DNA of 64,000 bases. Origin: an uncultured Candidatus Saccharibacteria bacterium (lineage in GTDB: Bacteria; Patescibacteriota; Minisyncoccia; Phycocordibacterales; DATGWK01). Location: contig CAYRZH010000001.1 of NCBI GenBank assembly GCA_964428845.1, positions 138,990 to 202,989 on the forward strand, read 5' to 3'. The translations under genes were made by a program, and so were the position numbers. Under the pieces are notes generated by a model. That model searched no databases, was not told the origin of the DNA, and saw nothing but the letters and a program-made list of their open reading frames with translations. Within the stretch, counting starts at the first letter, position 1; each line of letters opens with the position of its first letter. Below are positions 38,949-57,102 of this stretch, piece by piece.

Positions 38949-38968
38949 ATTTTGTATAATTAAGCAAT

Positions 38969-39406
38969 ATGCTTTCACAAATTCAAAAAGTAATAAAATT
39001 TCCCATAATCCTAGCTACTCTAGGTGTTCTTACTTTTGGATTTGTGTGTACGGGCATGGCAAGCCACGTTTCAATGCACGACGCAGACATGAATTCTACT
39101 GAGATAATAATATCAGGTGCTAATCAACAAGAATGTTGTAATACTAGCTTTTCTAAAAACATTGATACATGGAAGAACATTGTCTTAACAATTCCCGACA
39201 AGACACGAGATGCATTGTCACTACTCTTACTCGGACTGGTACTTGTTTTGGGATATAGTTGGGTGTCGCTCTGGAACCGGCGTCCTCCTATTGAGCTCGA
39301 TACGGGGCGGTTACGCCTCTACATCAGGGAAAATCCCAATCTGATACTTTTCAATCACCTGAAGCTCGCTTTTGCGCGCGGTATTCTCAATCCAAAAATC
39401 TACTAG
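38969..39406 (+). CDS. hypothetical membrane protein (first gene of AT-rich island)
   Basis: TM N-terminus and Cys pair (QQECCNT). AT-rich. Confidence 0.3.
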   Translation: MLSQIQKVIKFPIILATLGVLTFGFVCTGMASHVSMHDADMNSTEIIISGANQQECCNTSFSKNIDTWKNIVLTIPDKTRDALSLLLLGLVLVLGYSWVSLWNRRPPIELDTGRLRLYIRENPNLILFNHLKLAFARGILNPKIY

Positions 39407-39416
39407 TGGGTTTTTA

Positions 39417-39462
39417 AACAGCGTTGATCCGTAGTAACGGATCGTCTTAACGCTGTTTTATA
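39417..39462 (+). terminator. nested hairpin terminator (aaacagcgtt[gatccgt-agta-acggatc]...aacgctgttt + T-run)
   Basis: Outer 9-bp and inner 7-bp perfect stems followed by ttttatatt. Confidence 0.5.
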
Positions 39463-39500
39463 TTATTCGCTTAATTACTTAAATCTAATCACAATTAATT

Positions 39501-40253
39501 ATGGAACACGAAACAAAAGCACCAGAAACATCGCCGACACAACAAAATAACTTATCAATTCCCGTAGCGATCGTAATTGCCGGAGTACTTATTGCTGGAG
39601 CATTGTATCTCGGCACATCGAAAGGTGCATCCACGACCACAGTAAATAATCAGCAACCGCAACAAGTGGCACAGCCAACTGGTGATCTTGAAGCCATGAA
39701 AGCTGTCGCAAGCGGTGATCATGTTCGAGGCAACCCAGATGCACCGGTTAAAATCGTAGAATACTCGGACCCGGAATGTCCGTTCTGCAAACGATTTCAT
39801 GACACAATGAAGCAGGTCATGGATGAGTATGGTAAGGACGGTAAGGTCACTTGGGTCTATCGCAATTTTCCACTCGATCAACTTCATCCAAAAGCTCGCA
39901 ATGAGGCCACAGCCATTGAATGCGCTGGTGACCTCGGTGGCAACGATAAATTCTGGGCATACGCTGATCGCCTCTACGAGATCACTCCATCTAACAACAA
40001 TCTTGATCCGGCAGAGCTTCCAAAAATTGCTCAGTATGTCGGTCTTGATGTAGGTAAATTCAACACATGCCTTACGAGTGGTAAATTCACGAAGCACATC
40101 GAGGATGATGTTCAAAATGCAACTGCAACTGGCGGTAATGGCACACCATGGAGCATTGTAGTCGACAAAAATGGTAAGAAATATCCTCTTTCCGGTGCCC
40201 AGCCGTATGCTTCGGTAAAACAACTTATTGATCTTGCATTGCAAGGCAAATAA
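39501..40253 (+). CDS. DsbA-like thiol:disulfide oxidoreductase (thioredoxin fold, CPFC active site), membrane-anchored
   Basis: N-terminal TM. YSDPECPFCKRFH active site. DsbA-like helical insertion. Confidence 0.75.
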   Translation: MEHETKAPETSPTQQNNLSIPVAIVIAGVLIAGALYLGTSKGASTTTVNNQQPQQVAQPTGDLEAMKAVASGDHVRGNPDAPVKIVEYSDPECPFCKRFHDTMKQVMDEYGKDGKVTWVYRNFPLDQLHPKARNEATAIECAGDLGGNDKFWAYADRLYEITPSNNNLDPAELPKIAQYVGLDVGKFNTCLTSGKFTKHIEDDVQNATATGGNGTPWSIVVDKNGKKYPLSGAQPYASVKQLIDLALQGK

Positions 40254-40255
40254 AC

Positions 40256-40804
40256 ATGTTATTTCAAGCTCTGCAAAAAATATTCCGAAGGCCAATGTAT
40301 ATGCTCCTCGCTCTCATCACGAGCTCGGCAGTATTTGCATTCGCCGTATGGCTTCCAAACATTCCATTGATTGTGAAAGTTATGGGACACCCGGGAATAT
40401 CGCTTACGCAGAAGTTTGATCTACCAATCAGTCTCCTGGGCTCAATTGTTACTAACTTCACCTTGCTGTCCGCTTCGTATACCATCGCCATAGCCATTCT
40501 TTTTGGAATGAACGTGTCGATGATCGTGTACTTCTTGCGACGAAGAATCGACGATGTAAAGCAGACGGGAATGACAACAGGACTATTCGGAATTACGAGT
40601 GGAGTCATTGGTATGGGATGCGCCGCATGCGGATCGTTTCTCCTGACCAGCATACTTTCGCTTGTTGGAGCATCGGGAATATTGGCATTCTTGCCTCTGA
40701 ATGGCGGTGAATTCGGTATCCTCGGCGTAGTCCTACTAGGGACGTCGCTCTACATGACGGCAAAGAAAATCCAAAATCCTGCAGTCTGTAAAATTAACCC
40801 TTAA
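40256..40804 (+). CDS. polytopic membrane protein with intramembrane CxxC (GCAACGS); candidate DsbB/VKOR-like partner
   Basis: About 5 TM helices and one CxxC pair. Position right after the DsbA-like gene. Confidence 0.35.
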   Translation: MLFQALQKIFRRPMYMLLALITSSAVFAFAVWLPNIPLIVKVMGHPGISLTQKFDLPISLLGSIVTNFTLLSASYTIAIAILFGMNVSMIVYFLRRRIDDVKQTGMTTGLFGITSGVIGMGCAACGSFLLTSILSLVGASGILAFLPLNGGEFGILGVVLLGTSLYMTAKKIQNPAVCKINP

Positions 40805-40809
40805 TAACC

Positions 40810-41388
40810 ATGAATAATAAAAATGTACAAATATCAATTGCCCTCGCCCTGCTTCTCGTAGGCGGTGCATGGTATCTTGCATCCTCGAAAGAGGACGGGG
40901 CTTCTCCGTTTGTAGCAAACACTGCTCTTGCGGCTAAATTCGACATGCTAAGTAAAAATGGAAATTCTTCGTGCTCGGGTGCGTTCAAAGACTCCATCAA
41001 TAGCATGCCGGAGACTGGCCGGATTCAAGGCTCGTGTTGCAGTCCAATGGATATGCATCGCTACGAAGAGCAAGTTACCGGACTTGAGAAGTATAAAGAC
41101 ATTACAGAGATTCCCTCAGACCCATATGACATCGATGCCAGCTTGGCCAAAAAGCTCAAAGCGTATTACGACGTAGAACTCACACCGGAACAGCAAAAAG
41201 CATACGACTATGCAATGGCAAACTCGATGGAAAAAGGCCCTTGCTGTTGTAAGTGCTGGCGATGGTATGTCTATGGAGGTCTAGGAAAATTACTAATCCA
41301 AAAATATAACTTCACTGGCGAGCAAGTCACTGAAATCTGGAATCTGTCTGATGGATGTGGCGGAGCCGGTGATCATGTAACTCACTAA
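40810..41388 (+). CDS. secreted Cys-rich protein (CSGAF...SCCSP...GPCCCKCWRW...DGCGGAGDH)
   Basis: Signal peptide and about 10 cysteines in CC/CxC clusters. Confidence 0.3.
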   Translation: MNNKNVQISIALALLLVGGAWYLASSKEDGASPFVANTALAAKFDMLSKNGNSSCSGAFKDSINSMPETGRIQGSCCSPMDMHRYEEQVTGLEKYKDITEIPSDPYDIDASLAKKLKAYYDVELTPEQQKAYDYAMANSMEKGPCCCKCWRWYVYGGLGKLLIQKYNFTGEQVTEIWNLSDGCGGAGDHVTH

Positions 41389-41393
41389 ACACT

Positions 41394-41936
41394 ATGGACA
41401 ATAATCAACCACTTGAACAATTAAGTAAGAAAGAACGTAAAGAACTCAAACGACAGGAAAAAATGGAGGCTAAAATTGCGGTCGTTCAAACACGTCGCAC
41501 AAAGAAAATCATCCGATGGATTGGGTGGAGTGCATTCAGCGTTGCGACTATTGCAGGTCTTGTTTGGTTGGTCGCCTCAAGACCTCCAATTCCAGAATCT
41601 GATATCGTTTCCCGAAGTGCCTTTCATTGGCATCCGGAAGTTGCAATCTATGTAAAAGGCGAGAAACAAGAGATTCCAGCCAATATCGGTATCGGTTCGG
41701 TTCACCAACCTATTCACACTCATACAGATGATAATAAACAAGGAGTCGTCCATCTAGAATTTCAAGGGCTTGCCAGAAAGCAAGATGTCTCACTCGGTCA
41801 GTTTTTCAAAAACTGGGGTAAGGACATGCGCTCATTCGGCGCGAACATGAAGATGACCGTAAACGGGGAGGAAAATACCGAGTACGAGAATTACGTCATG
41901 CGTGATAAAGACAAAATTGAGATTCGGTTCGACTAG
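41394..41936 (+). CDS. membrane-anchored His-rich protein (HWHPE...HQPIHTHTDD)
   Basis: N-terminal TM and His clusters suggestive of metal binding. Confidence 0.3.
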   Translation: MDNNQPLEQLSKKERKELKRQEKMEAKIAVVQTRRTKKIIRWIGWSAFSVATIAGLVWLVASRPPIPESDIVSRSAFHWHPEVAIYVKGEKQEIPANIGIGSVHQPIHTHTDDNKQGVVHLEFQGLARKQDVSLGQFFKNWGKDMRSFGANMKMTVNGEENTEYENYVMRDKDKIEIRFD

Positions 41937-41987
41937 GTTATACACAGTTTACCACCTTGACCAATAGGGTATGGGGGTATATACTAA

Positions 41988-42404
41988 TTGGGTAACCTTA
42001 TGAAATATCTTGCAACATTAATGCTAATAACAAGCTTTGCCGGAATAGGCGTTTTTGGCTTTACGCTTGTTGACCATGCCATGATGGATGGTTCAAATAG
42101 TGATTGTGTTGCTTCGGCCATAGATGGAACAGAGTGCCCTACGAACATTATGGCTATGACTTCGCACCATGTTTCCGCCATGCAAACGCTTACGACAACA
42201 TTACCGGCAAATTCCAATTGGCTTTTATTACTTGCATCTCTGCTTCTTGTTTCGGTTTCAGTATTCCTATTCTTCAAAGACTTACTACTTCCAAAACTGG
42301 AGTCTTTACCCCAGCGTCTACGGGACCTAACACTTCACTCTCTTTATAGCAAACAAAAAATCATCTCTTGGCTTTCTCTATTTGAGCTTAGCCCTTCCCT
42401 GTAG
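41988..42404 (+). CDS. small membrane protein
   Basis: Two hydrophobic helices. Confidence 0.25.
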   Translation: MGNLMKYLATLMLITSFAGIGVFGFTLVDHAMMDGSNSDCVASAIDGTECPTNIMAMTSHHVSAMQTLTTTLPANSNWLLLLASLLLVSVSVFLFFKDLLLPKLESLPQRLRDLTLHSLYSKQKIISWLSLFELSPSL

Positions 42405-42514
42405 TAACAGCACGCATTAAGCGCAAGCTTTTTTCGTGCTGTTTTTAATATCCTTTTTCGAGGATATTTTTGTTATTTACTAACCTAAATTAATAACTGC
42501 ATGAAAAAAATTAT

Positions 42515-43381
42515 ATGGAAACACTCATAGGAACATCACTGATTGCAGCGTTCGTGGCGGGAGTCGCCGCACTCTTTGCCCCATGTTGTATCACAGTCCT
42601 ACTCCCATCATATTTGGGCAATATCTTCAAAGAGAAGTACAAAATCTTCTTTATGACTTTTGTCTTTTTCTTGGGAGTTTTGACGGTCTTTCTGCCGATC
42701 GGATTGGGAGCTTCATATCTCGCTCAACTATTCAGCGAATATCACAATATAATCTTTACTGTTGGCGGTATCTTCTTGGTTGTGCTGGGGCTAACAATGC
42801 TCCTTGGAAAGAAGTTCGCTACTCCGACATCTGTTCGTGACGGAATGAAGCGGCATGTCTCATCGATCTACGTTCTCGGTATTTTCTCGGCGATTGCCAC
42901 CACATGCTGTGCGCCGGTGCTGGCAGGAGTACTGACGCTTGGGGTTGCAAGCGGCACGATTGTGTGGGGCGCGCTGTATACCCTCGCCTACGTAGTCGGC
43001 ATGACGTTGCCACTGTTCATCATTGCGGCATTCCTCGACAAGGCAAATTTGACCGAACGATTCACTAACGCAAAGAAAACGGTAGCGATGAGGATCGGCG
43101 GTTTCAGTTGGCGTATTACCGTTTCAGAACTGATCTCCGGACTGATATTCCTCTTGATGGGTAGCTATATAACCTACCTGGCCTTCAGCAATAAATTATT
43201 CACCCATTCAAGCTATCAGTTGGAAATGAACCTATGGAACGCCAAATTCTTAGGTGCCATTAATGGCTTCGTGACCTTAGTACCCGAATACATCTGGGCG
43301 CTTCTGTTCATCGGCATAGTGGCGAGCATCTCGTACGTATTTATCAAGCAATATAAAAAACAAAAATATGAGCAAAAATAA
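42515..43381 (+). CDS. CcdA/DsbD-like transmembrane disulfide reductant transporter
   Basis: About 6-8 TM helices. Cys pairs in the first TM region (FAPCCITV) and a later region (TTCCAPV), as in the cytochrome c biogenesis CcdA/DsbD_2 family. Confidence 0.5.
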   Translation: METLIGTSLIAAFVAGVAALFAPCCITVLLPSYLGNIFKEKYKIFFMTFVFFLGVLTVFLPIGLGASYLAQLFSEYHNIIFTVGGIFLVVLGLTMLLGKKFATPTSVRDGMKRHVSSIYVLGIFSAIATTCCAPVLAGVLTLGVASGTIVWGALYTLAYVVGMTLPLFIIAAFLDKANLTERFTNAKKTVAMRIGGFSWRITVSELISGLIFLLMGSYITYLAFSNKLFTHSSYQLEMNLWNAKFLGAINGFVTLVPEYIWALLFIGIVASISYVFIKQYKKQKYEQK

Positions 43382-44033: not shown

Positions 44034-44045
44034 CAAACCAAAAAT

Positions 44046-44552
44046 ATGGACAAAAAACCAACAATGGAAGAGCTAATTGAAAAAGTTAATAAGCTCAAAG
44101 CTACGGGTGAACTCGATCTTTCAATGGAGGAGGATTTGAGCATAGCCATCATGAATCTCATTAGTCTTGAGGAGCATTTCTTCTTCACTGCCCAAAAAAC
44201 AGGAAAAGACGAATACTTTGATTTGCTCAATCAAACGAGAGAAATTAGAAAACAACTCTTGGCTAAAATGATTAATACACATGAGGGTGAGACATGGTGT
44301 ATTGCAAAGCATCTGCTTGCGACAACAATGCGGTTAATGGAAGTCGGCACTAAGCTTCAATCGTCCGGGAAAAAAGAAGAGTCGAGAGAGATATTCAAAA
44401 AAGCGTATGAAGTTTACTCACTTTTTTGGGCTTTGCGATTGAATCTTATCAGTGTGGCCGAAATGAAAAAAGCCGGAGACAAATCTGACCCTGACAAGCC
44501 GATGACAAAGGAAGATTTACTAAGCAAATTAGTCGATTGCTGTAAGGAATAA
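44046..44552 (+). CDS. hypothetical soluble protein
   Basis: ORF only. Confidence 0.25.
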   Translation: MDKKPTMEELIEKVNKLKATGELDLSMEEDLSIAIMNLISLEEHFFFTAQKTGKDEYFDLLNQTREIRKQLLAKMINTHEGETWCIAKHLLATTMRLMEVGTKLQSSGKKEESREIFKKAYEVYSLFWALRLNLISVAEMKKAGDKSDPDKPMTKEDLLSKLVDCCKE

Positions 44553-44569
44553 TCAATTAAAAAATAAAC

Positions 44570-45469
44570 ATGGAAAACGAAAAGGAACACGAAATACAAG
44601 AGGAACTAGTTCAAGAAGACCCAAAAAAGTTTAGTGATAAATATATGCTCCCAATAGCCGTTGTCATCGCGGGAGTCATGGTCGCAGGAGCCATGATCTA
44701 TAACTCTGGAAATCAATCACTACAGGCACAGGCGACGAAAAATTCAAATTCCCAAAATGCTCAAGTAGGGATAGTCGACGGTGGGCGCATACTACCTTTG
44801 GAGACAGAGGAAAAGATGCTTGCCACGCTAACTGCCAACGGTTCTATTGATCCTGCAAAATTGTCTCAAGTAACAGAACTTAACTTGCTCTGGGCATTTG
44901 GCTTAGCGAACAAGAATCAAGTTTTAGAGAGCGGACCTATTATGGACCCAAGATATGGCGGCCCTACAAATATGGCATCGGTTGGAGGCTGGACGGTAAC
45001 AACCGGATCGGTAATGGATCATTACAACAAACATACTCTGGCCACTCTCACGGGAGATCAGCAGGCACTTGTGGAGAAAATTGCAAAAGGAATTTACAGA
45101 CCGTGTTGCAACAATTCAACATATTTCCCGGACTGCAATCATGGCATGGCCATGCTCGGACTTCTTGAATATCTAGCGTCACAAGGAGCAACGGAAGACC
45201 AAATATGGAATGCGGCGATAACGGCCAATATGAGTTGGTTCCCGGATCAATACCAGACAATCTCACAGTATCTAAAAATAAAAGGTATCGATGCAAAAAT
45301 CATAACTCCGCAAATGCTTCTTGGTGCAGAGTACTCAAGTGGTTCGGGGTTTGCAAAGATCGCCGCTCAAGTTCCCCAGTCAGGGCAACAGAAGGGTGGA
45401 AGCGGTTGCGGAGTCGGGACCGGAGAGACGGTTGCGCCACAGCGACAGCAGGGCGGATGTGGAATCTAG
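44570..45469 (+). CDS. membrane-anchored Cys-containing hypothetical protein (RPCCNNSTYFPDCNHG)
   Basis: N-terminal TM and Cys cluster. Gln/Gly-rich C-terminus. Confidence 0.3.
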   Translation: MENEKEHEIQEELVQEDPKKFSDKYMLPIAVVIAGVMVAGAMIYNSGNQSLQAQATKNSNSQNAQVGIVDGGRILPLETEEKMLATLTANGSIDPAKLSQVTELNLLWAFGLANKNQVLESGPIMDPRYGGPTNMASVGGWTVTTGSVMDHYNKHTLATLTGDQQALVEKIAKGIYRPCCNNSTYFPDCNHGMAMLGLLEYLASQGATEDQIWNAAITANMSWFPDQYQTISQYLKIKGIDAKIITPQMLLGAEYSSGSGFAKIAAQVPQSGQQKGGSGCGVGTGETVAPQRQQGGCGI

Positions 45470-45566
45470 TTATACACAGCACTAGTTGACATATAGGGTA
45501 TAGGGGTATAGAGTATAGGTAAAGGTCGATAATAATCAATCTAAATTACCCTATAAACCCTAAATC

Positions 45567-45839
45567 ATGTTAGATCAAAAGTTAAAAAAGAAAGCTACCC
45601 ACCGAGCCAAAATCATTCGCGGCCAGATGGACGGCTTAATAAAAGCAATCGAAGATGAGAAGTATTGTGTTGATTTGATAACGCAGTCTCGATCAATCCA
45701 GCTCTCACTCAAAAGTATGGACAGAGTGCTTCTTGCCAATCACCTTCGAGGCCATGTCAAACACATGCTTAACGATACGAAGCAGGAAAACAAAGCCATC
45801 AAAGAACTCGTTGACCTGTACGCATTGTCAAATAAATAA
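45567..45839 (+). CDS. CsoR/RcnR-family metal-sensing transcriptional repressor (single-Cys variant)
   Basis: 90-aa DUF156-like helix bundle: ...EKYCVDLITQSRSIQLSL...ANHLRGHVKH. Confidence 0.6.
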   Translation: MLDQKLKKKATHRAKIIRGQMDGLIKAIEDEKYCVDLITQSRSIQLSLKSMDRVLLANHLRGHVKHMLNDTKQENKAIKELVDLYALSNK

Positions 45840-45841
45840 CC

Positions 45842-46051
45842 ATGCGCAAAAAAATCACATCATTCTTAAAAAGGTTTGGGATGCACGAGGTGAAAGATCC
45901 TCAAACGTCCTTTGATGTTGTATGCGGCATGGAACTTACACCTGAAAAAATCAAGCACACCATAGAGCATACGGACGGCACCGCTTATCACTTCTGTTCA
46001 AAGTCGTGCAAGGATCATTTCGTCAACGATCCTCAAAAATACGTAGGCTGA
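45842..46051 (+). CDS. YHS/TRASH-domain metal-binding protein (paralog 1)
   Basis: VCGMEL...YHFCSKSCKDHFVNDPQKY matches CGM...Y-FCS..C...F..dP..Y. Confidence 0.6.
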   Translation: MRKKITSFLKRFGMHEVKDPQTSFDVVCGMELTPEKIKHTIEHTDGTAYHFCSKSCKDHFVNDPQKYVG

Positions 46052-46071
46052 TTAAAAATTAATTCAAAAAT

Positions 46072-46311
46072 ATGAAGATGTCAAAAGTGTTGCATGTTGT
46101 CAGCGTTATATCGGGAGTCTTAGGAGTCCTTTCATTTCTCGGTCTGTTTGGTGGAGGAATGATGTCTGGGTTCTCTGGGATGATGGGATATGGTGGGCAA
46201 GGTTACGCATCCATGCCCATGGGTTCAATAGGGTTCTTTTTGATCGCTATTTGGCTCCAGATCGCCACGATTCATCACATGATGCTTGAGAAGAAGGGAG
46301 AGATTGTCTAG
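46072..46311 (+). CDS. small Met/Gly-rich membrane protein
   Basis: MMSGFSGMMGYGGQGYASMPMG with flanking TM helices. Confidence 0.3.
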   Translation: MKMSKVLHVVSVISGVLGVLSFLGLFGGGMMSGFSGMMGYGGQGYASMPMGSIGFFLIAIWLQIATIHHMMLEKKGEIV

Positions 46312-46334
46312 TTAAAAACTAATAATAAAAAATT

Positions 46335-46508
46335 ATGGAAAACGACCATCCATCAAGAAAAGTGTCCGACCCAGTGTGTGGCATGGAGCTTGATATTGAA
46401 AATGTCAGACATTCATTCGAACACGAAGGTACAGAATATTATTTCTGTTCCGAGAAGTGCAAAACTGAATTTATCAATGATCCGGAGAAGTATATTAAAA
46501 AGGATTAA
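46335..46508 (+). CDS. YHS/TRASH-domain metal-binding protein (paralog 2, 57 aa; below ORF-track cutoff)
   Basis: Hand-translated: MENDHPSRKVSDPVCGMELDIENVRHSFEHEGTEYYFCSEKCKTEFINDPEKYIKKD. Confidence 0.55.
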   Translation: MENDHPSRKVSDPVCGMELDIENVRHSFEHEGTEYYFCSEKCKTEFINDPEKYIKKD

Positions 46509-46538
46509 TTATCACTCAATTAATAATTAATAAAAAAT

Positions 46539-46802
46539 ATGAATCTCTCACTAAAATCATATGGCTGGAAATGTGTCCTTGGAGCTGAAGTGGCGTATGT
46601 TCTTTGTGTGTTGGGTGGATTTCTTCCACTAAGATCTGCGGCTGGGATACAGCTTCACCACACTATCTTTGAAACTCTACCGGGTTTTGCTTGGATCAGC
46701 TTCGGTAGTTTCATCCTTGGTGCAGTCTACATGTTCGTCTTTGCTTGGGTTTTCGCTTCCTATTTTGTATGGATGCACAATTCAAGTCTTATCAATAAAT
46801 AA
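46539..46802 (+). CDS. small membrane protein
   Basis: Two TM helices. Confidence 0.25.
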   Translation: MNLSLKSYGWKCVLGAEVAYVLCVLGGFLPLRSAAGIQLHHTIFETLPGFAWISFGSFILGAVYMFVFAWVFASYFVWMHNSSLINK

Positions 46803-46814
46803 TGATTAAACTAT

Positions 46815-47096
46815 ATGCACAACCACAATAAAGACGGAGGAGGCAGAGGAATGATGTGGATGATGATCCCATGCCTACTCCTTGTTGGTGTTCTGTTTCT
46901 TGGTGGAGGCAAGTTGTCTGGAGGTGGATATCTCTGGCCAATTCTTATCGGTGTCTTTGTAATCGCACATGTCTGGATGATGTTAAGAGGACACGGTAGA
47001 CACGGGGATACTAATACGGAAGATAAAATTGATGACGCTTCCGGAAAACAATCTGACACAAAGGATGAACATAAGCATAGCGGCAGTTGCCACTAA
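46815..47096 (+). CDS. small Met/His-rich membrane protein (MHNHNKDGGGRGMMWMM...HGRHGD...HKHSGSCH)
   Basis: Met and His clusters flanking TM helices, suggesting metal binding. Confidence 0.3.
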   Translation: MHNHNKDGGGRGMMWMMIPCLLLVGVLFLGGGKLSGGGYLWPILIGVFVIAHVWMMLRGHGRHGDTNTEDKIDDASGKQSDTKDEHKHSGSCH

Positions 47097-47104
47097 AAAT
47101 CATT

Positions 47105-47746
47105 ATGGAAAACTCCTATGGCCTCTGGCCACTTGTCATCATAAATTCGCTAGTCTTCATTATCTTTGCGTTCAGCTTTACTAAGCCGAAAACATCGAGG
47201 GATTGGCGATCATTTGGCGCATTCTCAGCGTTTCTTGTTGCCCTGTTTACAGAGATGTACGGTTTTCCATTGACGATATATCTTTTCTCCGGCTGGCTCT
47301 CAACCAAGTTCCCTGGTGTTGATTTCTTTGCTCACAATTCAGGACACCTCTTTGAAGACTTCTTTGGCTGGGGTGGCGATCCACACTTCGGACCGTTCCA
47401 TATCGCCAGCTACATCCTAATTTTCTACGGCTTCGTGTTGCTCTCTAAGGCGTGGAAAGTCCTTTATAAAGCACAGCAAGATCATACTTTAGCAACCTCA
47501 GGGCCTTACGCTCGCATTCGCCATCCGCAATATGTTGGTTTCGTACTGATTATGCTCGGATTTTTCTTGCAGTGGCCTACGATCCTCACTCTTATCATGT
47601 TACCGATTCTTGTTTGGATGTATACACGCCTTGCGCGGAGTGAAGAGAAAGACTCTCAAAAAGAATTCGGAGTGGTATGGGATGAATACGCTAAAAAGAC
47701 CCCTTCTTTCATTCCCCGACGGAAAAAATTAACAGCTAATACTTAA
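47105..47746 (+). CDS. isoprenylcysteine carboxyl methyltransferase (ICMT)/phospholipid methyltransferase family membrane protein
   Basis: ARIRHPQYVGFVLIMLGFFLQWPT...RSEEK matches the ICMT/PEMT family signature. ATG at 47105. Confidence 0.55.
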   Translation: MENSYGLWPLVIINSLVFIIFAFSFTKPKTSRDWRSFGAFSAFLVALFTEMYGFPLTIYLFSGWLSTKFPGVDFFAHNSGHLFEDFFGWGGDPHFGPFHIASYILIFYGFVLLSKAWKVLYKAQQDHTLATSGPYARIRHPQYVGFVLIMLGFFLQWPTILTLIMLPILVWMYTRLARSEEKDSQKEFGVVWDEYAKKTPSFIPRRKKLTANT

Positions 47747-47751
47747 ACTAT

Positions 47752-47964
47752 ATGGAAAACAGAATCAAATCATTAATTAAAAAGCTGAGTCGGTTTGGTT
47801 TTAGTGTTAAGCCAAAAAATAAAGGTCATATAGATCCTGTGTGTGGTATGGAAGCATCAGCAGACTTATTCAAGGCTGATTACAAAGACAAAAGCTATTA
47901 TTTTTGTTCCGATCATTGTCAACAACAATTCAAAAAAGACCCAGAAACGTATATCACAAAATAA
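47752..47964 (+). CDS. YHS/TRASH-domain metal-binding protein (paralog 3)
   Basis: VCGMEASADLF...YYFCSDHCQQQFKKDPETY. Confidence 0.6.
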   Translation: MENRIKSLIKKLSRFGFSVKPKNKGHIDPVCGMEASADLFKADYKDKSYYFCSDHCQQQFKKDPETYITK

Positions 47965-47966
47965 TT

Positions 47967-48410
47967 ATGACCAACAACATCGCAAAACCAATTCTATACG
48001 GAACGATTGCAAGCGTGATTCTGCTTGGAGTTTATTTTGCGGTGCTAACACTAGTTTCCGGATGGAGTTTTGCTCAAAGTCAGTTCGCGGATTTCTGGTA
48101 TTTTATTGTCAGCTTGGTAGTAGGTTTCGGAATTCAGATTGCACTTTATCAATACATTAAGGGCTTGGTGCATAGCGGACAAGGCATGGGCAAAGTGGTT
48201 GGCGTATCAGGGACAACCTCCACGGCAGCCATGATTTCATGCTGTGCCCACTATCTAGTCAATCTGGTGCCCATTCTTGGAGTGACAGGACTCGTTACAT
48301 TTGTAGCACAGTATCAGGTTGAGCTCTTCTGGGTGGGTCTTGTTTCTAATATATTTGGTATCGGATATATGGTAACCAGAGTTATTAAATTCAAAAAAAA
48401 TCATGAGTAA
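47967..48410 (+). CDS. membrane protein (4 TM)
   Basis: Start MTNNIAKP at 47967. Hydrophobic throughout. Confidence 0.3.
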   Translation: MTNNIAKPILYGTIASVILLGVYFAVLTLVSGWSFAQSQFADFWYFIVSLVVGFGIQIALYQYIKGLVHSGQGMGKVVGVSGTTSTAAMISCCAHYLVNLVPILGVTGLVTFVAQYQVELFWVGLVSNIFGIGYMVTRVIKFKKNHE

Positions 48411-48855
48411 AGCAATAACAATACTTTCATTAGCACTTGCGTTTATAGGAGGTTTCTTGTTTTTTTATAATCCGAAATCCGCCCCTACTCCTACTCAAGA
48501 AAATTCTTCAGTATCAGAAACGCAACAAAAATGGGAATCTAAAATTAATGATCAGGCGAGTGTAACTGTAACCGTCACGCCGACTCAGCTTTCGGAGGAA
48601 TCGGGAGAATGGAAGTTTGATGTAGTCATGGATACTCACTCCGTTGAATTGGATCAAGACATGACTAAAGTTGCTATACTTATCGATGAACAGGGCAAAG
48701 AATATAAAGCACTTAACTGGGAGGGACCGACCGGAGGCCACCATAGAGAAGGCATCCTTACCTTTGACAAGATAATGCCTACTCCAAAATCTGTTGAACT
48801 AAAGATTTCCAACATAGGGGGTGTTGTCAGAACTTTTAATTGGCAACTTAAATAA
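48403..48855 (+). CDS. membrane-anchored periplasmic beta-rich protein (possible metal chaperone)
   Basis: TM followed by a soluble domain with HH (GGHHREG). Function inferred only from context. Confidence 0.25.
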   Translation: MSKAITILSLALAFIGGFLFFYNPKSAPTPTQENSSVSETQQKWESKINDQASVTVTVTPTQLSEESGEWKFDVVMDTHSVELDQDMTKVAILIDEQGKEYKALNWEGPTGGHHREGILTFDKIMPTPKSVELKISNIGGVVRTFNWQLK

Positions 48856-48856
48856 T

Positions 48857-49564
48857 ATGCAATACATCTGGTTAATCTGGAGCTTAATATTGATTGCTAT
48901 CTGGCTGGCCGTTTACATTTCTCTTCGTTCGGATAGCCAGAAAGAAGAGATGCTCATGGTCAGCTTGTGGACATCGCTTCTCGGACTAACTGAGCCTCTT
49001 TTCGTGCCAGAATACTGGTCGCCGCCGTCTTTGTTTGATTTGGCAATGCGGACAGGATTTGATATTGAAAGTTTGATCTTTTCATTTGGTATAGGAGGTC
49101 TTGCGGTTATTTTATACAGCAGAATTTTCCGGAGACAAGATATGTCAATGTCTACCAAAGAGCACCACCTGCCTCGGCACAGATTTCACCTATGGGCACT
49201 TGCATCCGCACCGGTTGTTCTTATTGTGTTATTGCTAGCAACCAGCTTAGATCCTTTGCACTCCTCGATCATTGCTATGGTCGTGGGAGGACTGGCCACC
49301 TGGTATTGCCGGCCGGATTTAAAGAAGAAGATGATCACAAGCGCGTTTATATTTTTAGCTCTTTACTTTTTTTACTTCCTGACGCTTATTGCCATATCGC
49401 CAGGCTATGTCGAGCAGGTCTGGAATCTAGAAGATATTTCAGGAATTTTAATAATTGGAATTCCCCTTGAGGAACTGCTGTTCGCCTTGAGCTTCGGTTT
49501 TATCTGGTCGAGTATTTATGAACATCTTACCTGGAAAAAATTAAAATTATTAAAACAAACATAA
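48857..49564 (+). CDS. polytopic membrane protein
   Basis: Start MQYIWLIW at 48857. About 7 TM helices. Confidence 0.3.
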   Translation: MQYIWLIWSLILIAIWLAVYISLRSDSQKEEMLMVSLWTSLLGLTEPLFVPEYWSPPSLFDLAMRTGFDIESLIFSFGIGGLAVILYSRIFRRQDMSMSTKEHHLPRHRFHLWALASAPVVLIVLLLATSLDPLHSSIIAMVVGGLATWYCRPDLKKKMITSAFIFLALYFFYFLTLIAISPGYVEQVWNLEDISGILIIGIPLEELLFALSFGFIWSSIYEHLTWKKLKLLKQT

Positions 49565-49568
49565 ATTT

Positions 49569-49745
49569 ATGGACAACAAAAATCACAATCAAAAAGTCGA
49601 GGAGAAATTACATAAATGTCCGGAATGCGGTTTGTATTATGAAGACAAATCTCAGATGGAAAAATGCAAAGTATGGTGCAAAGAACATCACAGTTGTAAT
49701 TTAGAAATTACAAGCTATGCCATTGAAAATAAGCAAAATAAATAA
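49569..49745 (+). CDS. 58-aa zinc-ribbon-like protein (CPECG...C..WC)
   Basis: Hand-translated: MDNKNHNQKVEEKLHKCPECGLYYEDKSQMEKCKVWCKEHHSCNLEITSYAIENKQNK. Confidence 0.35.
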   Translation: MDNKNHNQKVEEKLHKCPECGLYYEDKSQMEKCKVWCKEHHSCNLEITSYAIENKQNK

Positions 49746-49746
49746 T

Positions 49747-51987
49747 ATGGAGAATCATAATCATCATAAAATTCAAGAAAAAGAGGGAGTGGTTTATACC
49801 TGCCCAATGCATCCTGAAGTACAGCAGGATCGACCTGGCACTTGTCCAAAATGCGGCATGAGTCTTGTTAAGGCTGAAGTAAAAACTGATCACAGTGCTC
49901 ACGCTGGGCATGTGATGGGTGATGTGTCCAAAATGGGTTTCTGGGAGAAATTCAAAATGAGCATGTCGATGACTATGGGCATGGATCACACGGGTCTTGC
50001 AGGACGGGAGATGGCGCGACTCATGGAGATAGATATTAGAAACAAGTTCTTTTTTTCACTCATTCTGACGCTTCCCATAATTCTATATTCTCCTCTAGGT
50101 ACTGAGTTTCTTAAACTCAATCTTCCATCGCCAATAGCCCTTCCTTGGCTTCTCTTTATTCTAACAACGCCAGTATTCTTTTATTCCGGATGGATTTTTC
50201 TATACTCAACATATTTCGCTCTGAAAAGTAAAATGCTGAACATGGCCGTGCTTATTGCTGTCGGCATTACGGCGGCCTACGGCTTCAGTGTCTTACTAAC
50301 CTTAACTGGTAGTACAGACTCATACTACGAAGCGGCCGCTATGCTTATTACCTTTGTCTTGTTCGGCCACTGGATGGAGATGAAATCACGGCGCGGAACG
50401 ACGGATGCCCTTCAAGCACTTTTCAATCTTGTACCGCCTCAAGCAAGATTATTTAAGGACGGCAAAGAGATAATGGTTTCTACTTCCGATATACAACTCG
50501 GCGACATCATTATTCTTAAACCGGGAGACAAGGTTCCTGTTGATGGTGAAATTATTGAGGGAGAAACAGCTATTGATGAATCCCTGGTTACCGGAGAATC
50601 AATTCCTACCACTAAAAAGATTGGAGATCAGGTAATTGGTGGATCAATCAACACGGCTGGGTCAGTAAAATTTAAAGCAACAAAAATCGGCAAGGATACC
50701 GCTCTTGCTCGAATTGTAGCGATGGTTGAAAAAGCGCAGAATTCAAAAGCCCCGGGGCAGAGACTTGCCGACAGATTTGCCAAGTATTTGGTTATTGGGG
50801 CTATTGGATCAGGACTTCTCGTATTTATTATTTGGTACTTTATAGTCGGCGTGCCGATTATGCTGGCATTGTCCTTTGCCATCGCTACGGTTGTAATCGC
50901 CTGTCCTGATGCTCTTGGACTAGCCACTCCAACAGCTGTTGCAGTTGGGACCGGTCTTGGTGCAAAACATAACATTCTTATTAAAGACGCGCCGACGCTT
51001 GAACAAGTCTCAAAAATTCAGGCGATCGTGCTCGATAAAACAGGTACGCTCACCGAAGGAAAACCGAAGGTAACCGATATAGCTACTGCGGATGGCTTTG
51101 ATGCAGACGAGGTACTTCGTTTGGTTGGCGCGGCAGAGGCAAAATCGTCTCACCCTTTAGCAGGCGCTGTACTTGATGAATTAAAATCTCGCAAACTCGA
51201 ATTACCACAAAGCGTTGAAAAATTTGAAAACTTATCCGGTCTTGGGGTAAAAGCTATCGTTGAAAATAAAAATATCCTTGTCGGGACAGTTAAGTTGATG
51301 AGGGAGAATAAAATAGAGCTTGGCAAGCTTGAGCAAAAGATTAATGAGTTTTTGGACCGGGGAGAAACCATTATGGTTCTTGCTGTTGATGGTGCAATAA
51401 AAGCAGTCATAGGAGCTGCCGATCCAATAAAGCCAACTGCGAAAGAAGCGATAAAAAAGATGAAAGATTTGGGAATTGAAATAGCAATGATTACTGGTGA
51501 CAACAAGACAACTGCAGAAAAGGTGGCACAACAGATCGGTATAGAACGAGTTTTTTCCGAAGTGATGCCCGAGGATAAAGCAAGCTATGTGAAGAAGCTT
51601 CAAAGCGAGGGAAAATTCACAGCAATGGTTGGCGACGGGGTTAATGACGCCCCGGCGCTTGCCCAAGCTGATGTGGGCATCGCTATTGGTGCTGGTACGG
51701 ATGTCGCTATTGAAACGGCAAAAGTAGTTCTGATGAAATCAGATCCTGCGGATATCCTTCGAGCTATAATCCTCTCCAAGGCGACCATCCGCAAAATGAA
51801 GCAGAATCTTTTCTGGGCTTCGATATATAACATTCTTGCAATACCAGTTGCCGGAGGAATTCTATATCCTAATTTCGGTATTATGCTCCGTCCAGAATTC
51901 GCTGCTCTTCTTATGAGTGTGTCCTCGATCATTGTTGCTGTTAACGCGGTATTACTCAAACGAGTCGAGAAGGATTTAATGGCGTAA
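49747..51987 (+). CDS. copA: heavy-metal (copper-type) P1B-ATPase with N-terminal Cys/His metal-binding motif and CPD (not CPC) TM motif
   Basis: DKTGTLTEG phosphorylation site, GDGVNDAPAL, TGES. N-terminus YTCPMHPEV...GTCPKCGMSL. TM6 reads VIACPDALGLATP. Confidence 0.8.
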   Translation: MENHNHHKIQEKEGVVYTCPMHPEVQQDRPGTCPKCGMSLVKAEVKTDHSAHAGHVMGDVSKMGFWEKFKMSMSMTMGMDHTGLAGREMARLMEIDIRNKFFFSLILTLPIILYSPLGTEFLKLNLPSPIALPWLLFILTTPVFFYSGWIFLYSTYFALKSKMLNMAVLIAVGITAAYGFSVLLTLTGSTDSYYEAAAMLITFVLFGHWMEMKSRRGTTDALQALFNLVPPQARLFKDGKEIMVSTSDIQLGDIIILKPGDKVPVDGEIIEGETAIDESLVTGESIPTTKKIGDQVIGGSINTAGSVKFKATKIGKDTALARIVAMVEKAQNSKAPGQRLADRFAKYLVIGAIGSGLLVFIIWYFIVGVPIMLALSFAIATVVIACPDALGLATPTAVAVGTGLGAKHNILIKDAPTLEQVSKIQAIVLDKTGTLTEGKPKVTDIATADGFDADEVLRLVGAAEAKSSHPLAGAVLDELKSRKLELPQSVEKFENLSGLGVKAIVENKNILVGTVKLMRENKIELGKLEQKINEFLDRGETIMVLAVDGAIKAVIGAADPIKPTAKEAIKKMKDLGIEIAMITGDNKTTAEKVAQQIGIERVFSEVMPEDKASYVKKLQSEGKFTAMVGDGVNDAPALAQADVGIAIGAGTDVAIETAKVVLMKSDPADILRAIILSKATIRKMKQNLFWASIYNILAIPVAGGILYPNFGIMLRPEFAALLMSVSSIIVAVNAVLLKRVEKDLMA

Positions 51988-52009
51988 ATAATATAAAATT
52001 AATAAATTT

Positions 52010-52369
52010 ATGAAAAATAAATCAATTCTACTCATACAAATAGGTCTTGCGGCGGTATTTCTCGCCAATGCTCTTACGGTAATATTTAACCCCGAAGAAT
52101 TTATTGAGATTATAGAGAATTCTTTTATTGGAGTTCTCATCCCATCTGGGATCGCACTAACAATTATTGCTATAAATGACGGCTTGATGACACTTCTTAT
52201 TCTTTTTAGTAGGAAGTGGCGACAGTTAATTTTTGGCTGGGCGATTATCTGGATTGTGGTTGTGCTGATTGCAATCGGTAAGCCACTGGATATTCTTGAG
52301 GAGTCGGCATTCCTTTTTATGGCAATTGCTTTGTTCTTTGAAGCAAAAAATTATAAATTAAACAATTAA
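52010..52369 (+). CDS. small membrane protein (DoxX-like)
   Basis: Four hydrophobic helices. Confidence 0.25.
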   Translation: MKNKSILLIQIGLAAVFLANALTVIFNPEEFIEIIENSFIGVLIPSGIALTIIAINDGLMTLLILFSRKWRQLIFGWAIIWIVVVLIAIGKPLDILEESAFLFMAIALFFEAKNYKLNN

Positions 52370-52374
52370 ATCAT

Positions 52375-53979
52375 ATGAAAAATAAACTAATCTTGGGAAT
52401 CATTGCGGTCGTAATCGTTATCGGTGGAATTGTCATTCTGCAGCGGGGAGATTCGGGCAACAAAGTAAGTGCCGGTACTTTTTCTACTGATATTGCTGGT
52501 CTGCCAGAGGCAAAATCATCTGAGACAGTCAAGCTTAAAAATGGCGATACGTATAACATGACCGCCTCAATCGTAAAGAAAACAATCGGTAATAGCGTGG
52601 TTAAAATGCTTGCCTACAATGGAATGATCCCAGGACCCTTGATCAAGGTGGAGCAAGGCGCAGAGGTTACTTTGAATTTCACCAATAATACTGATGTTGA
52701 TACCACAATTCACTCGCACGGCGTACGTCTTGAGAACAAATTCGATGGTGTACCAGATGTAACCCAGAAAGAAGTTAAGCCGGGCGAATCATTCACTTAC
52801 AAGATCAAGTTCCCTGATGAAGGTATGTACTGGTATCATCCGCACATTCGGGAAGACTATGCTCAAGAGCTTGGTCTCTACGGCAACTACCTTGTCGTGC
52901 CGAATGATCCCAACTATTGGTCACCGGTTAATCGTGAAGTCGCGCTGTTCGTAGATGACATCCTGATGGAAAATGGCAAAATCGCGACGTTCAGCAAGGC
53001 GTCTGCTGATCGTACTCTCATGGGTCGGTTTGGCAACACTATGCTCGTGAATGGCGAAACAGATTATGCACTTACCGCCAAGACGGGAGAAGTGATCCGC
53101 TTCTACATCACCAACTCGGCAAATACAAGAACGTTCAATCTTTCCATCCCCGGCGCAAAGATGAAGCTTGTGGGTGCTGATGGCGGCAAGTACGAGCGCG
53201 AGACTTGGAGCGATGGCGTGATATTGAGTCCTTCCGAACGTACCATTGTCGAGGTGCTATTTGCGAACGCTGGATCATACACGCTTCAGCACAAAACTCC
53301 GGAGAAAACTTACACGCTCGGAATAATCACTGTTGCGAATGAGAAAGTTAGCACTTCGTTCGAGAAAGAGTTTCTAACGCTCCGTTCGAATAAAGACATT
53401 CAATCAGAGATTGATGCATTCAGGTTGTCCTTCGATAAGCCAGCAGACAAACGTCTAAAGCTCACGATTGATATGGGTATGCAAATGCAGGGCATGATGC
53501 AAAGTAACACTGGCGGTCACAACATGAACATGATGGGCAATAATCAGATGATGTCCAACAGTGAAATGGTAGCAAGCGGTGATCCTATCGAATGGGAAGA
53601 AAACAATGCGGCGATGAATACTATGTCGAATCCGGAAATGATGAAGTGGGTTATCCAAGACGAAGACACCGGCAAGAAAAATATGGATATTGATTGGAAA
53701 TTCAAAGTCGGAGACAAAGTAAAAATCAAAATCACCAATGATCCGAACTCCATGCACCCAATGCAACACCCCATCCACTTCCACGGCCAACGATTCTTAG
53801 TGCTCTCAACAAACGGCAAACCAAATGACAATCTTGTGTGGAAAGATACCGCTCTTATTCCGAATGGCGACACGATTGAGATCCTCCTCGATGTTACAAA
53901 CCCCGGTGAATGGATGGCACACTGTCACATTGCCGAGCATTTGGAAGCAAGTATGATGTTTGGCTTCAAGGTCGAGTAA
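52375..53979 (+). CDS. multicopper oxidase (CueO/CopA-like) with methionine-rich insert
   Basis: Cu ligand motifs HSHG, WYHPH, HPIHFHG, HCHIAEH. Met-rich segment MGMQMQGMMQSNTGGHNMNMMGNNQMMSNSEM. Signal-anchor N-terminus. Confidence 0.8.
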   Translation: MKNKLILGIIAVVIVIGGIVILQRGDSGNKVSAGTFSTDIAGLPEAKSSETVKLKNGDTYNMTASIVKKTIGNSVVKMLAYNGMIPGPLIKVEQGAEVTLNFTNNTDVDTTIHSHGVRLENKFDGVPDVTQKEVKPGESFTYKIKFPDEGMYWYHPHIREDYAQELGLYGNYLVVPNDPNYWSPVNREVALFVDDILMENGKIATFSKASADRTLMGRFGNTMLVNGETDYALTAKTGEVIRFYITNSANTRTFNLSIPGAKMKLVGADGGKYERETWSDGVILSPSERTIVEVLFANAGSYTLQHKTPEKTYTLGIITVANEKVSTSFEKEFLTLRSNKDIQSEIDAFRLSFDKPADKRLKLTIDMGMQMQGMMQSNTGGHNMNMMGNNQMMSNSEMVASGDPIEWEENNAAMNTMSNPEMMKWVIQDEDTGKKNMDIDWKFKVGDKVKIKITNDPNSMHPMQHPIHFHGQRFLVLSTNGKPNDNLVWKDTALIPNGDTIEILLDVTNPGEWMAHCHIAEHLEASMMFGFKVE

Positions 53980-57048: not shown

Positions 57049-57102
57049 GCGGTGGTTTGGTTCATAGAAGTGACCTCACACTTTTATTGACCCCACCTTG
57101 CC

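Follow-up and report, generated by a model that had tools for sequence, protein, structure and literature searches.

A predicted copper-detoxification and thiol-protection gene array within a defective SU10-like prophage of a Patescibacterial genome

We analysed a 64,000-nucleotide (nt) stretch of an uncultured Candidatus Saccharibacteria genome (contig CAYRZH010000001.1, positions 138,990–202,989; hereafter the window), in which 25 open reading frames (ORFs; g01–g25) on the + strand span positions 38,969–53,979. We propose, with a probability of roughly 70%, that this array is a modular, Patescibacteria-wide set for detoxification of copper (most likely Cu+) and protection of envelope thiols, and that here it would be the cargo of an SU10-like prophage beside a tRNA-Ser gene, the virion genes having been lost in one deletion of about 22–27 kb. 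The proposal rests on gene identities and DNA motifs, which we set out first for the array, then for its distribution and its prophage setting.

Most of the gene content listed in an original prediction from the letters alone was recovered by Pfam, namely a DsbA-like protein, CcdA, a redoxin, CsoR, three YHS proteins, an ICMT-family enzyme, a P1B ATPase and a multicopper oxidase, but a TlpA-like label for the redoxin did not stand. As also claimed there, the array exceeds a textbook cop/cue operon in size, in thiol-redox genes and in mini-protein genes. The starts of four genes were reset by comparison with relatives (g06 to 42,000, g17 to 47,105, g19 to 47,967 and g21 to 48,857); with these corrected starts, 20 of the 24 junctions measure at most 30 nt, and the other four gaps are 94, 63, 110 and 97 nt. 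A simple hydropathy scan predicts transmembrane (TM) segments in 19 of the 25 products, which are either polytopic or held by a single N-terminal anchor. Shine–Dalgarno-like sequence is nearly absent before the array genes, and an A/T-rich leader of the AAATAAT type (repeat families D1–D3) recurs directly 5′ of the ATG. The genes are as follows, all on the + strand; loci in other genomes carry handles beginning with L.

38,969–39,406, +, g01: 145-residue protein with two TM segments and a Met/His/Cys loop, paralogue of g06; homologues at the same position in L086 and L101
39,501–40,253, +, g02: membrane-anchored DsbA-like thioredoxin fold, CPFC (Pfam Thioredoxin_4 7.8e-27, DSBA 5e-14)
40,256–40,804, +, g03: four-TM protein with invariant intramembrane GxGCA(A/S)CG and a C-terminal Cys; no family match; found in 12 loci
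40,810–41,388, +, g04: anchored Cys-rich protein (SCCSPM.HRY, PCCCKCWRW, DGCGG); no family match; 50–94% identical in other loci
41,394–41,936, +, g05: anchored His-cluster protein (HWHP..HQPIHTH..VHLE); no family match
42,000–42,404, +, g06: 134-residue two-TM Met/His/Cys protein, paralogue of g01
42,515–43,381, +, g07: CcdA-type thiol:disulfide electron transporter (Pfam DsbD_TM 4.1e-11); 97% identical to L083/L101
43,368–44,033, +, g08: anchored thioredoxin-fold protein with CYPAC, a CxxxC motif (Pfam Redoxin/AhpC-TSA)
44,046–44,552, +, g09: cytoplasmic 168-residue helical protein with invariant WCI.KH and C-terminal CC(K/R)E; no family match
44,570–45,469, +, g10: anchored 299-residue protein with invariant RPCC.N.T.FPDCNH.MAMLG
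45,567–45,839, +, g11 (csoR): CsoR-family repressor, x-C-H-H type (Pfam Trns_repr_metal 4.9e-18)
45,842–46,051, +, g12: YHS protein (Pfam)
between g12 and g14, within 45,842–46,508, +, g13: 79-residue two-TM Met/Gly-rich protein with C terminus IHHMMLEKKGE
46,335–46,508, +, g14: YHS protein (Pfam)
46,539–47,096, +, g15 and g16: two-TM proteins of 87 residues (LHH..WMHNSS) and 93 residues (Met/His-rich, C-terminal GSCH)
47,105–47,746, +, g17: ICMT/PEMT-family membrane methyltransferase (Pfam ICMT 1.4e-10)
47,752–47,964, +, g18: third YHS protein (Pfam 1e-12)
47,967–48,855, +, g19 and g20: conserved pair of a 147-residue polytopic protein (invariant SGTTST.AMISCC(A/T)HYLVN) and an anchored 150-residue protein (THSVELDQD..GGHHREG)
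48,857–49,745, +, g21 and g22: membrane protein with a lycopene-cyclase domain (Pfam Lycopene_cyc 1.1e-17) and a 58-residue Cys/His zinc-ribbon
49,747–51,987, +, g23: P1B-type ATPase with N-terminal HMBD and CPD (Pfam E1-E2_ATPase, HMBD)
52,010–52,369, +, g24: 119-residue polytopic protein with a weak MauE/DoxX-like match
52,375–53,979, +, g25: anchored three-domain multicopper oxidase with a Met-rich insert (Pfam)

Copper genes and their control

The catalytic core of the pump g23 is intact (DKTGT, TGES, GDGVNDAP and HP; E1-E2_ATPase 1e-54, Hydrolase 4e-36), and the protein scores 592 bits against TIGR01511, for which the cutoff is 397. In the transport helix, CPD aligns with the CPC of Legionella CopA (3RFU, E 1e-169), its best solved relative. 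The substitution, already pointed out in the original prediction, is real: CPD occurs in 119 of 120 database homologues and in 81 of 82 genome loci, and this near-invariance means that it is not a sequencing error. The N-terminal CPMHP...CPKCGM segment, by the same account unusual, is an ordinary HMBD (Pfam PF19335, E 1.5e-13), over which Legionella CopA (3RFU) also aligns.

Subgroup signatures place g23 outside both named copper-pump groups. It carries YN(x)4P (YNILAIP) and M(x)2SS (MSVSS) and lacks the CPC of P1B-1 (CopA); from P1B-3 (CopB) it departs in having CPD instead of CPH, an HMBD instead of a His-rich N terminus, and MSVSS instead of MSxST. In a library clustered at 50% identity, the whole tight group of g23 homologues is reduced to a single representative; the 150 closest representatives comprise 136 with CPC, six with CPD, six with CPH, one with SPD and one with TPG. 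In a rough neighbour-joining distance tree the CPD clade adjoins the CPH (CopB-like) clade, apart from CPC, and the CPD pumps thus appear to be related to the CopB clade without being members of it. To our knowledge, there is no biochemical study of the CPD variant. A CPD variant of P1B-3 termed 'P1B-3b' has been reported in three Rhizobiales, Xanthobacter, Nitrobacter and Bradyrhizobium (PMC5552934). These ATPases share with g23 the CPD, few N-terminal His residues, YN(x)4P and MS..S(S/T), but the window pump has an HMBD and belongs to a tight Patescibacterial clade (67–96% identical), and the two are likened here by motifs, not by direct sequence relatedness.

The oxidase g25 contains the domains Cu-oxidase_3, Cu-oxidase and Cu-oxidase_2, all four copper-site His motifs (HSHG, WYHPH, HPIHFHG and HCHIAEHLEASM) and a Met-rich run, MGMQMQGMMQS..MNMMGNNQMM. 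Its best NCBIfam matches are CueO and CopA, the CueO score of 157 bits lying below the equivalog cutoff of 525.

The ligand positions of the regulator g11 are C34, H59 and H63, which gives x-C-H-H and not the canonical Cu(I) set x-C-H-C. The assignment of this single-Cys protein to the CsoR/RcnR family was sound in that it belongs to the CsoR family, but it is not unusual, given that an x-C-H-H type has been described for the Thermus thermophilus CsoR encoded beside copZ/copA (PMC11672702). The Thermus type is regarded as a probable Cu(I) sensor, and the Cys-to-His change may make the subgroup more promiscuous (PMC11672702). An RcnR-type Ni/Co sensor was considered and rejected, as the N-terminal His is absent and the protein matches the Thermus type. 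Near CPD pumps in general, 21 of 33 CsoR homologues are C-H-H and 12 are canonical C-H-C.

Two promoter-like sites and three terminator hairpins divide the array:

41,957–41,985, +: promoter-like site TTGACC-17-TATACT, 20 nt before g06, with operator-like ATAGGGTATGGGGGTAT in the spacer (41,964–41,980)
45,486–45,514, +: promoter-like site TTGACA-17-TAGAGT upstream of csoR, with operator-like ATAGGGTATAGGGGTAT in the spacer (45,493–45,509)
39,416–39,458: nested terminator hairpin 3′ of g01 (−22.5 kcal/mol, z −4.8), followed by a U-run
42,406–42,468: tandem terminator hairpins 3′ of g06 (z −5.3), followed by a U-run
54,002–54,040: terminator hairpin 3′ of the oxidase gene g25 (z −5.0), followed by a U-run

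The operator-like motif, ATAGGGTAT(G/A)GGGGTAT, occurs exactly twice in the 64 kb against 0.21 occurrences expected by chance, and both copies sit in the spacer between the −35 and −10 elements, before csoR and, as a perfect copy, before g06. It is invariant in a promoter alignment of eight loci whose regulators are 61–98% identical to g11. Moreover, its core is found 12 times in 1.6 Mb of related loci, and 11 of these copies lie 29–84 nt upstream of homologues of csoR (nine) or g06 (two). The 17-nt motif is therefore the likely operator of the x-C-H-H CsoR, as far as its position and conservation can indicate. A scan of the window found the motif neither in the DsbA module (g02–g05) nor in the CcdA module (g07–g10), and we infer a two-promoter CsoR regulon consisting of g06 alone and of csoR through the oxidase gene.

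A simple terminator scan missed the hairpins after g01 and g06, which have long or nested loops and were recovered by folding. The nested terminator that had been placed before the array does exist, but it lies 3′ of g01, inside the interval. Nor is the array one transcription unit, as had been supposed, given strong hairpins after g01, g06 and the oxidase gene and two internal promoters. The paralogues g01 and g06 share 25% identity. A thiol-redox module begins with each of them and a very strong terminator lies 3′ of both, an arrangement that resembles highly expressed leader genes under read-through control.

With csoR–copZ–copA of Bacillus subtilis and T. thermophilus and with CopA/CueO of Escherichia coli, the array shares a CsoR-family repressor, a P1B pump and a Met-rich oxidase; as in csoR–copZ–copA, the operator overlaps the promoter if the predicted G-tract motif is taken as such. 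It differs from them in having three YHS proteins in place of an HMA-type CopZ, CPD in place of CPC, two operator-bearing promoters and 20 further genes, 14 of them unannotated.

Thiol-redox proteins and unannotated families

The label that did not stand concerns g08, whose CYPAC is a CxxxC and not the CxxC that the name TlpA-like implies. A CxxxC motif with a distal His forms the copper site of Sco1/SenC. In g08, alignment places the His of GHTYIVID at the catalytic Arg position of Bcp peroxiredoxins, which are also its best matches (E 1e-6), ahead of Bradyrhizobium ScoI (Blr1131; 0.02) and TlpA (0.03); Pfam SCO1-SenC scores 0.0025, below cutoff. The protein thus looks Sco-like by motif, yet its overall sequence is closest to Bcp-type peroxiredoxins.

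A precedent for thiol-redox proteins tied to copper tolerance is the Scs system (suppressor of copper sensitivity), with ScsB a DsbD-family transporter, ScsC DsbA-like and ScsD TlpA-like. The array resembles it in combining a DsbD-family electron transporter, represented by the DsbD_TM core, with a DsbA-like CPFC protein and a further envelope thioredoxin-fold protein; it differs in that its CcdA is a short form without the periplasmic domains of ScsB, g08 has CxxxC plus His instead of CxxC, and ScsA is missing. We regard the likeness as an analogy, not as membership. The host is probably a monoderm-like cell of the candidate phyla radiation (CPR) without quinones. The intramembrane Cys protein g03, whose gene always adjoins that of the DsbA-like protein, is a candidate redox partner of the latter.

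Fourteen ORFs, falling into 13 families, have no above-threshold match in Pfam or NCBIfam. With the exception of g01, all of them have translated homologues with invariant Cys/His/Met motifs beside the same ATPase in other genomes, and g01 has its homologues in L086 and L101; we take all 14 to be genuine genes. One of them, g10, has 6,591 homologues, all unnamed; the core of its predicted model has a predicted local distance difference test score (pLDDT) above 90, and this confident model has no fold match in the PDB. Profile–profile comparison gives a probability of 30% (E 5.5e-4) that g04 and g10 are paralogues. The pair g19–g20, each member without a family match, is present in 16 loci for each gene.

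Genes of the g21 and g22 types, a lycopene-cyclase-domain protein and a zinc-ribbon protein, also lie directly upstream of the pump in L019, L007, L045 and L074; the lycopene-cyclase-domain gene occurs in organisms that are not expected to make carotenoids. As for g17, ICMT-family proteins accompany czc/ncc metal determinants too (CzcN).

Distribution and prophage setting

Species-representative genomes contain at least 532 stretches that encode the same ATPase. Its homologues are 82–96% identical to g23 among the top 120, and 67–89% identical across Parcubacteria, Microgenomates, Saccharibacteria, WWE3 and some metagenome-assembled genomes (MAGs) of Bathyarchaeota and Micrarchaeota. When all array proteins were searched by tblastn against the more than 80 pump-anchored loci, sub-modules recurred in varying order: DsbA–g03–g04–g05; g06–CcdA–g08–g09–g10; csoR with YHS and mini-protein genes; ICMT; g19–g20; g21–g22; the pump; and g24–oxidase. 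Five loci (L003, L019, L021, L083 and L101) are largely collinear with the window array, and L001 is among those with a short form made up of csoR, pump, small proteins, DsbA, g03, g05 and oxidase. The window itself is a mosaic, in which g01–g05 are like L086, g06–g20 like L083/L101 (80–90% nt identity), and g21–g22 occur in L019/L007. Literature searches found no published account of this cluster.

Across 54 loci the G+C content (GC) of the pump gene tracks that of the host flanks (r = 0.90); in most of these genomes the cluster is therefore an old, long-term resident and not a fresh import. An island test that expected the array to be absent or atypical in relatives consequently went against the idea of an island, as the array is conserved and its GC follows the host. 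The statement that it is much more AT-rich than both flanks was overstated: the array has 42.9% GC, compared with 46.8% in the host DNA on the left, 43.2% in that on the right and 47–49% in the phage backbone. This shift is small and one-sided, and the tetranucleotide distance of the array lies inside the spread of other 5-kb windows. We therefore rejected a compositional genomic-island call as weak, the GC not being outside the host range on both sides. What survives of the claim of horizontal acquisition is mobility, through a prophage accessory slot, but not the argument from composition.

In L001, a cst-like set (genes for another CsoR-family protein, a rhodanese and a protein with a metallo-beta-lactamase fold; 7,992–9,488) lies directly upstream of csoR and the pump, which points to a link between the responses to sulfide/persulfide and to copper in some Patescibacteria. 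CPD pumps 68–70% identical to g23 occur in MAGs labelled Bathyarchaeota, Micrarchaeota and Methanosarcinales (L042, L048, L051, L062, L067 and L074), and in L051, L067 and L074 the pump GC is close to that of its own flanks; these archaeal-labelled pumps reflect either cross-domain transfer or binning errors. Many third-party annotation (TPA) labels of 'uncultured Gammaproteobacteria' on other loci look mis-assigned.

In the window, the array lies between parts of a prophage and a tRNA gene:

34,562–38,122, −: prophage late-region remnant with a two-TM holin-like ORF, an Amidase_2 endolysin (34,872–35,438) and a 5′-truncated gene of 937/938 residues
38,115–38,122: deletion junction, its left side within the 937-residue gene and its right side within a 929-residue AAA gene
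38,271–38,948, +: AAA_21/AAA_23 ATPase pseudogene, a 225-residue ORF corresponding to the 3′ fragment (last 225 codons) of the 929-residue gene
54,134–55,309, +: Csd3-like M23 peptidase
55,376–55,588, +: 70-residue backbone protein, paralogue of the 92-residue ORF at 56,770–57,048
55,619–57,048, −: phage early module with a 96-residue zinc-ribbon protein, an HTH_36 replication-initiator-like protein (56,035–56,676) and the 92-residue protein
57,464–58,183, +: CI/LexA-like repressor (HTH_3 and Peptidase_S24)
58,239–60,101, +: large serine recombinase (integrase) of 620 residues (Pfam Resolvase, Recombinase and Zn_ribbon_recom; PHROG integrase 5.6e-97)
59,765–59,854, −: canonical tRNA-Ser(TGA) with CCA end, antisense in the last ~110 codons of the integrase ORF; likely integration target

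PHROG matches back the late-region endolysin, and the integrase is 76–89% identical in L087 and L086. An uncultivated virus genome (UViG) in IMG/VR, UViG_3300025154_002045 (55.9 kb), matches the window at 34,562–38,122 (87% nt identity), 38,115–38,952 (86%) and 56,098–59,863 (79%). It encodes an SU10-type major head protein, a tail fibre/spike and a transglycosylase; its AAA gene is intact at 929 residues, and the slot from there up to the zinc-ribbon gene holds only 3 kb of unrelated genes. The closest sibling, Logan contig SRR12816580_31251 (69,341 bp), carries phage genes for RadC, Fic, Dam methylase, ParB, SU10 portal, capsid and adaptor, a beta-helix tailspike, a LysM protein and the 937-residue protein. 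In this contig the intact AAA gene is followed in the same slot by a collinear 18-kb array that ends in the same M23 gene and matches that of the window at 81–90% nt identity, its proteins being 72–98% identical. L086, from a third sample, has the same slot together with the lysogeny module (85% nt identity over 4.1 kb). From these contigs, the array appears to be accessory cargo of a temperate SU10-like phage family.

Two of the UViG matches abut in the window at 38,115–38,122, where ~22 kb is missing relative to the Logan contig and 26.6 kb relative to the UViG; the missing DNA covers RadC, Fic, Dam methylase, ParB, portal, capsid and tail genes. The junction removed the 5′ 652 codons of the AAA gene and ~120 codons of the 938-residue gene, the truncated copy of which (ORF 35,673–38,141, 822 residues) is 92% identical at the protein level to the 937-residue gene of L102. 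The truncated ATPase pseudogene noticed in the original prediction is confirmed, being a product of this deletion, and its 225-residue ORF matches the C-terminal 225 residues of the intact 929-residue relative in L101 at 95% identity. The window lacks capsid, portal, terminase and tail genes, which the homologous UViG and SRR12816580_31251 do have. The window prophage is thus defective and, because of this, its array copy is fixed in place.

The integrase, repressor and tRNA-Ser genes lie together at one end, as expected of the end of a prophage, which suggests that the phage integrated at tRNA-Ser. No empty integration site was found among metagenome contigs scanned with the flanking PilM, the relatives of which reached at most 36% identity. 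Exact-sequence searches with the window ATPase and with PilM matched no contig. The L086 and L087 contigs end within ~50 nt of the tRNA-Ser gene, as if assemblies break at the attachment (att) site.

Carriage of a P1B pump and an oxidase as accessory cargo has precedents in the copB–mco element of Staphylococcus aureus (PMC6191537) and in Streptococcus suis prophages with mco and copA (MN270269 and OP662531), in which the two genes lie at one end of the prophage. Those cargoes comprise 2–3 genes, against 25 genes (15 kb) here and 18 kb in the sibling, up to one third of the phage genome; their pumps are at most 46% identical to g23, and the window host is a Patescibacterium. P1B pumps occur in 93 of 50,697 GenBank phage records, none closer than ~46% to g23. 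With SU10-like podophages, the sibling contig and the UViG share capsid, portal, adaptor and beta-helix tailspike (Pfam SU10_MCP, SU10_portal and SU10_adaptor); they differ in that the relatives of the window prophage encode a serine integrase and a CI-like repressor and are temperate, and the window copy is without all structural genes. The annotated parts are known families or variants, and what is new is the 25-gene scale, the host group, the fixed slot with shuffled modules, the CPD pump with a Thermus-type sensor and a defined operator, and the 13 conserved unannotated families.

The 70-residue and 92-residue backbone paralogues share LADxLGREPxxQEx.xxHAGFKRMAF, and in L083 a copy lies beside a different serine recombinase. 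They may act as a recombination directionality factor or represent some other marker of the backbone, and their duplication hints at recombination between two related elements. On the IMG/VR phage contig L088, a second serine recombinase and a 1,008-residue helicase-like protein (phrog_3830) are encoded at 16,405–20,861, beyond the window homology; this contig may combine two elements or represent a phage genome of larger size.

Proposed mechanism, alternatives and minor features

Gene identities, motifs, promoter and operator copies and terminators are read directly from the DNA, and from these we infer the functional steps that follow. A tetramer of the x-C-H-H CsoR would sit on the operator motif in the spacers of two near-identical promoters, and copper binding would release it and induce g06 and the long unit from csoR to the oxidase gene. 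Copper inside the cell may be buffered by the three YHS proteins, the zinc-ribbon protein and g09, which would pass it to the HMBD of the pump in place of the missing CopZ, and the CPD-type ATPase would export it. Outside, the membrane-anchored Met-rich oxidase would turn Cu+ into Cu2+, while the Met/His-rich mini-proteins and the anchored His/Cys proteins (g05, g20, g04 and g10) may bind or relay copper at the membrane surface. The DsbA-like protein with g03 and CcdA with g08 would curb the faulty oxidation that copper catalyses in exported cysteine proteins and hold copper-binding thiols in the reduced state, in a manner analogous to Scs. More tentatively, at odds somewhat short of even, we suggest that SU10-like temperate phages of Parcubacteria reshuffle a 9–18-kb copper/thiol supra-operon in a fixed slot and that lysogeny confers copper tolerance on ultra-small, genome-poor episymbionts, the cargo including an uncharacterised CPD metal pump and about a dozen new copper/thiol envelope families, among them g03 as a quinone-independent DsbA partner and g10 as a fold without a solved relative.

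Several observations weigh against copper defence carried by a phage. The changes from CPC to CPD in the pump and from C-H-C to C-H-H in the sensor both 'harden' the metal site and could signal a different or broader metal range. Pfam finds no HMA/CopZ chaperone domain in any of the 25 products, the nearest sequences to g08 are peroxiredoxins (E 1e-6) and not Sco (E 0.02), and the roles given to the 13 unannotated families are guesses from motifs and topology. The window prophage cannot make particles. In addition, an IMG/VR scan found no close relative of the ATPase, and phage carriage thus appears rare, at three contigs compared with hundreds of chromosomal loci.

The array might serve copper supply instead of defence, a slow CopA2/FixI-like CPD exporter metallating the extracellular oxidase, in the assembly of which g08, CcdA and the DsbA-like protein would assist; the true output would then be oxidase activity (O2 scavenging, or oxidation of Fe2+, Mn2+ or phenols) for an organism without a respiratory chain. 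TlpA/Sco/CcdA sets are classic cuproenzyme assembly factors, g08 has the Sco-type CxxxC and His and is paired with CcdA, and close relatives almost always have the oxidase gene linked to that of the pump. We nevertheless consider this unlikely: a CsoR-type de-repression switch fits induction by excess copper, the array encodes many copper-buffering mini-proteins, and many loci have the pump but no oxidase within 10 kb. The Met-rich insert, too, is a hallmark of cuprous oxidases such as CueO (PMC11494321). Still less probable is a system for a different metal or for a broad range of metals (Ag+, Zn2+, Co2+, Ni2+ or Cu2+), as Asp for the second Cys of the pump and His for the second Cys of the sensor might indicate. 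The near-invariance of CPD, the frequency of x-C-H-H, the promiscuity that Cys-to-His may bring (PMC11672702) and the H-C-H-H set of RcnR-type Ni/Co sensors would all fit such a system. However, g11 is without the RcnR N-terminal His, YN(x)4P and M..SS are signatures of copper pumps, to which the best matches of g23 in the PDB and NCBIfam also belong, and HMBD, YHS and multicopper oxidase co-occur; moreover, the 12 neighbouring regulators with canonical C-H-C accompany the same CPD pump.

That the array is no phage cargo at all, being an older chromosomal or transposon island to which phage fragments became adjacent by independent insertion or MAG mis-assembly, we hold to be very improbable. 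Most of the more than 80 related loci have no phage genes within 10 kb, the pump GC follows the host, the IMG/VR scan found no relative of the ATPase, and the window comes from a metagenome-assembled contig. These points are outweighed in our view by three independent contigs from different samples with array variants in the same slot (from the AAA gene to the zinc-ribbon/HTH_36 genes), by the full virion gene set on one single 69-kb contig, and by the cargo-free phage contig that holds 3 kb of other genes in that slot.

On the reading we prefer, copper detoxification with thiol protection, the array offers a compact, regulator-defined list of candidate copper/thiol proteins, including 13 unannotated families conserved across the radiation, that can be tested in heterologous hosts. 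Patescibacteria account for a large part of bacterial diversity, and very little has been described of how they handle metals. That one of their temperate phages can carry a metal-homeostasis block of up to one third of its genome bears on how traits move among cells with ~1-Mb genomes, and the near-invariant CPD is a natural experiment on the third residue of the CPx motif in P1B pumps.

To the left of the prophage remnant lie two copies of a direct repeat:

32,820–32,892, +: 73-nt direct repeat, copy 1; candidate distal att remnant
34,438–34,510, +: 73-nt direct repeat, copy 2, 79% identical, just outside the start of prophage homology (34,562)

Copy 1 contains a fragment like the 3′ end of tRNA-Ser, GCGGAGGAGGTG..ATTCGAAC (12 + 8 nt), at 32,852–32,880. 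The repeats bracket a TrmB/HTH_36-like gene (33,029–33,853, −) and a 163-residue cupin-like ORF, and a second small integrated element or an att remnant may lie between them. The final part of g01 and the sequence beyond the integrase share a 30-nt similarity (family D9), which was at chance level and was dropped. Adjoining the repeat and prophage region on the left, purL and a cyclopropane-fatty-acid-synthase-like gene (27,558–32,772) reach 51–54% GC, the maximum of the window, compared with an average of 46%.

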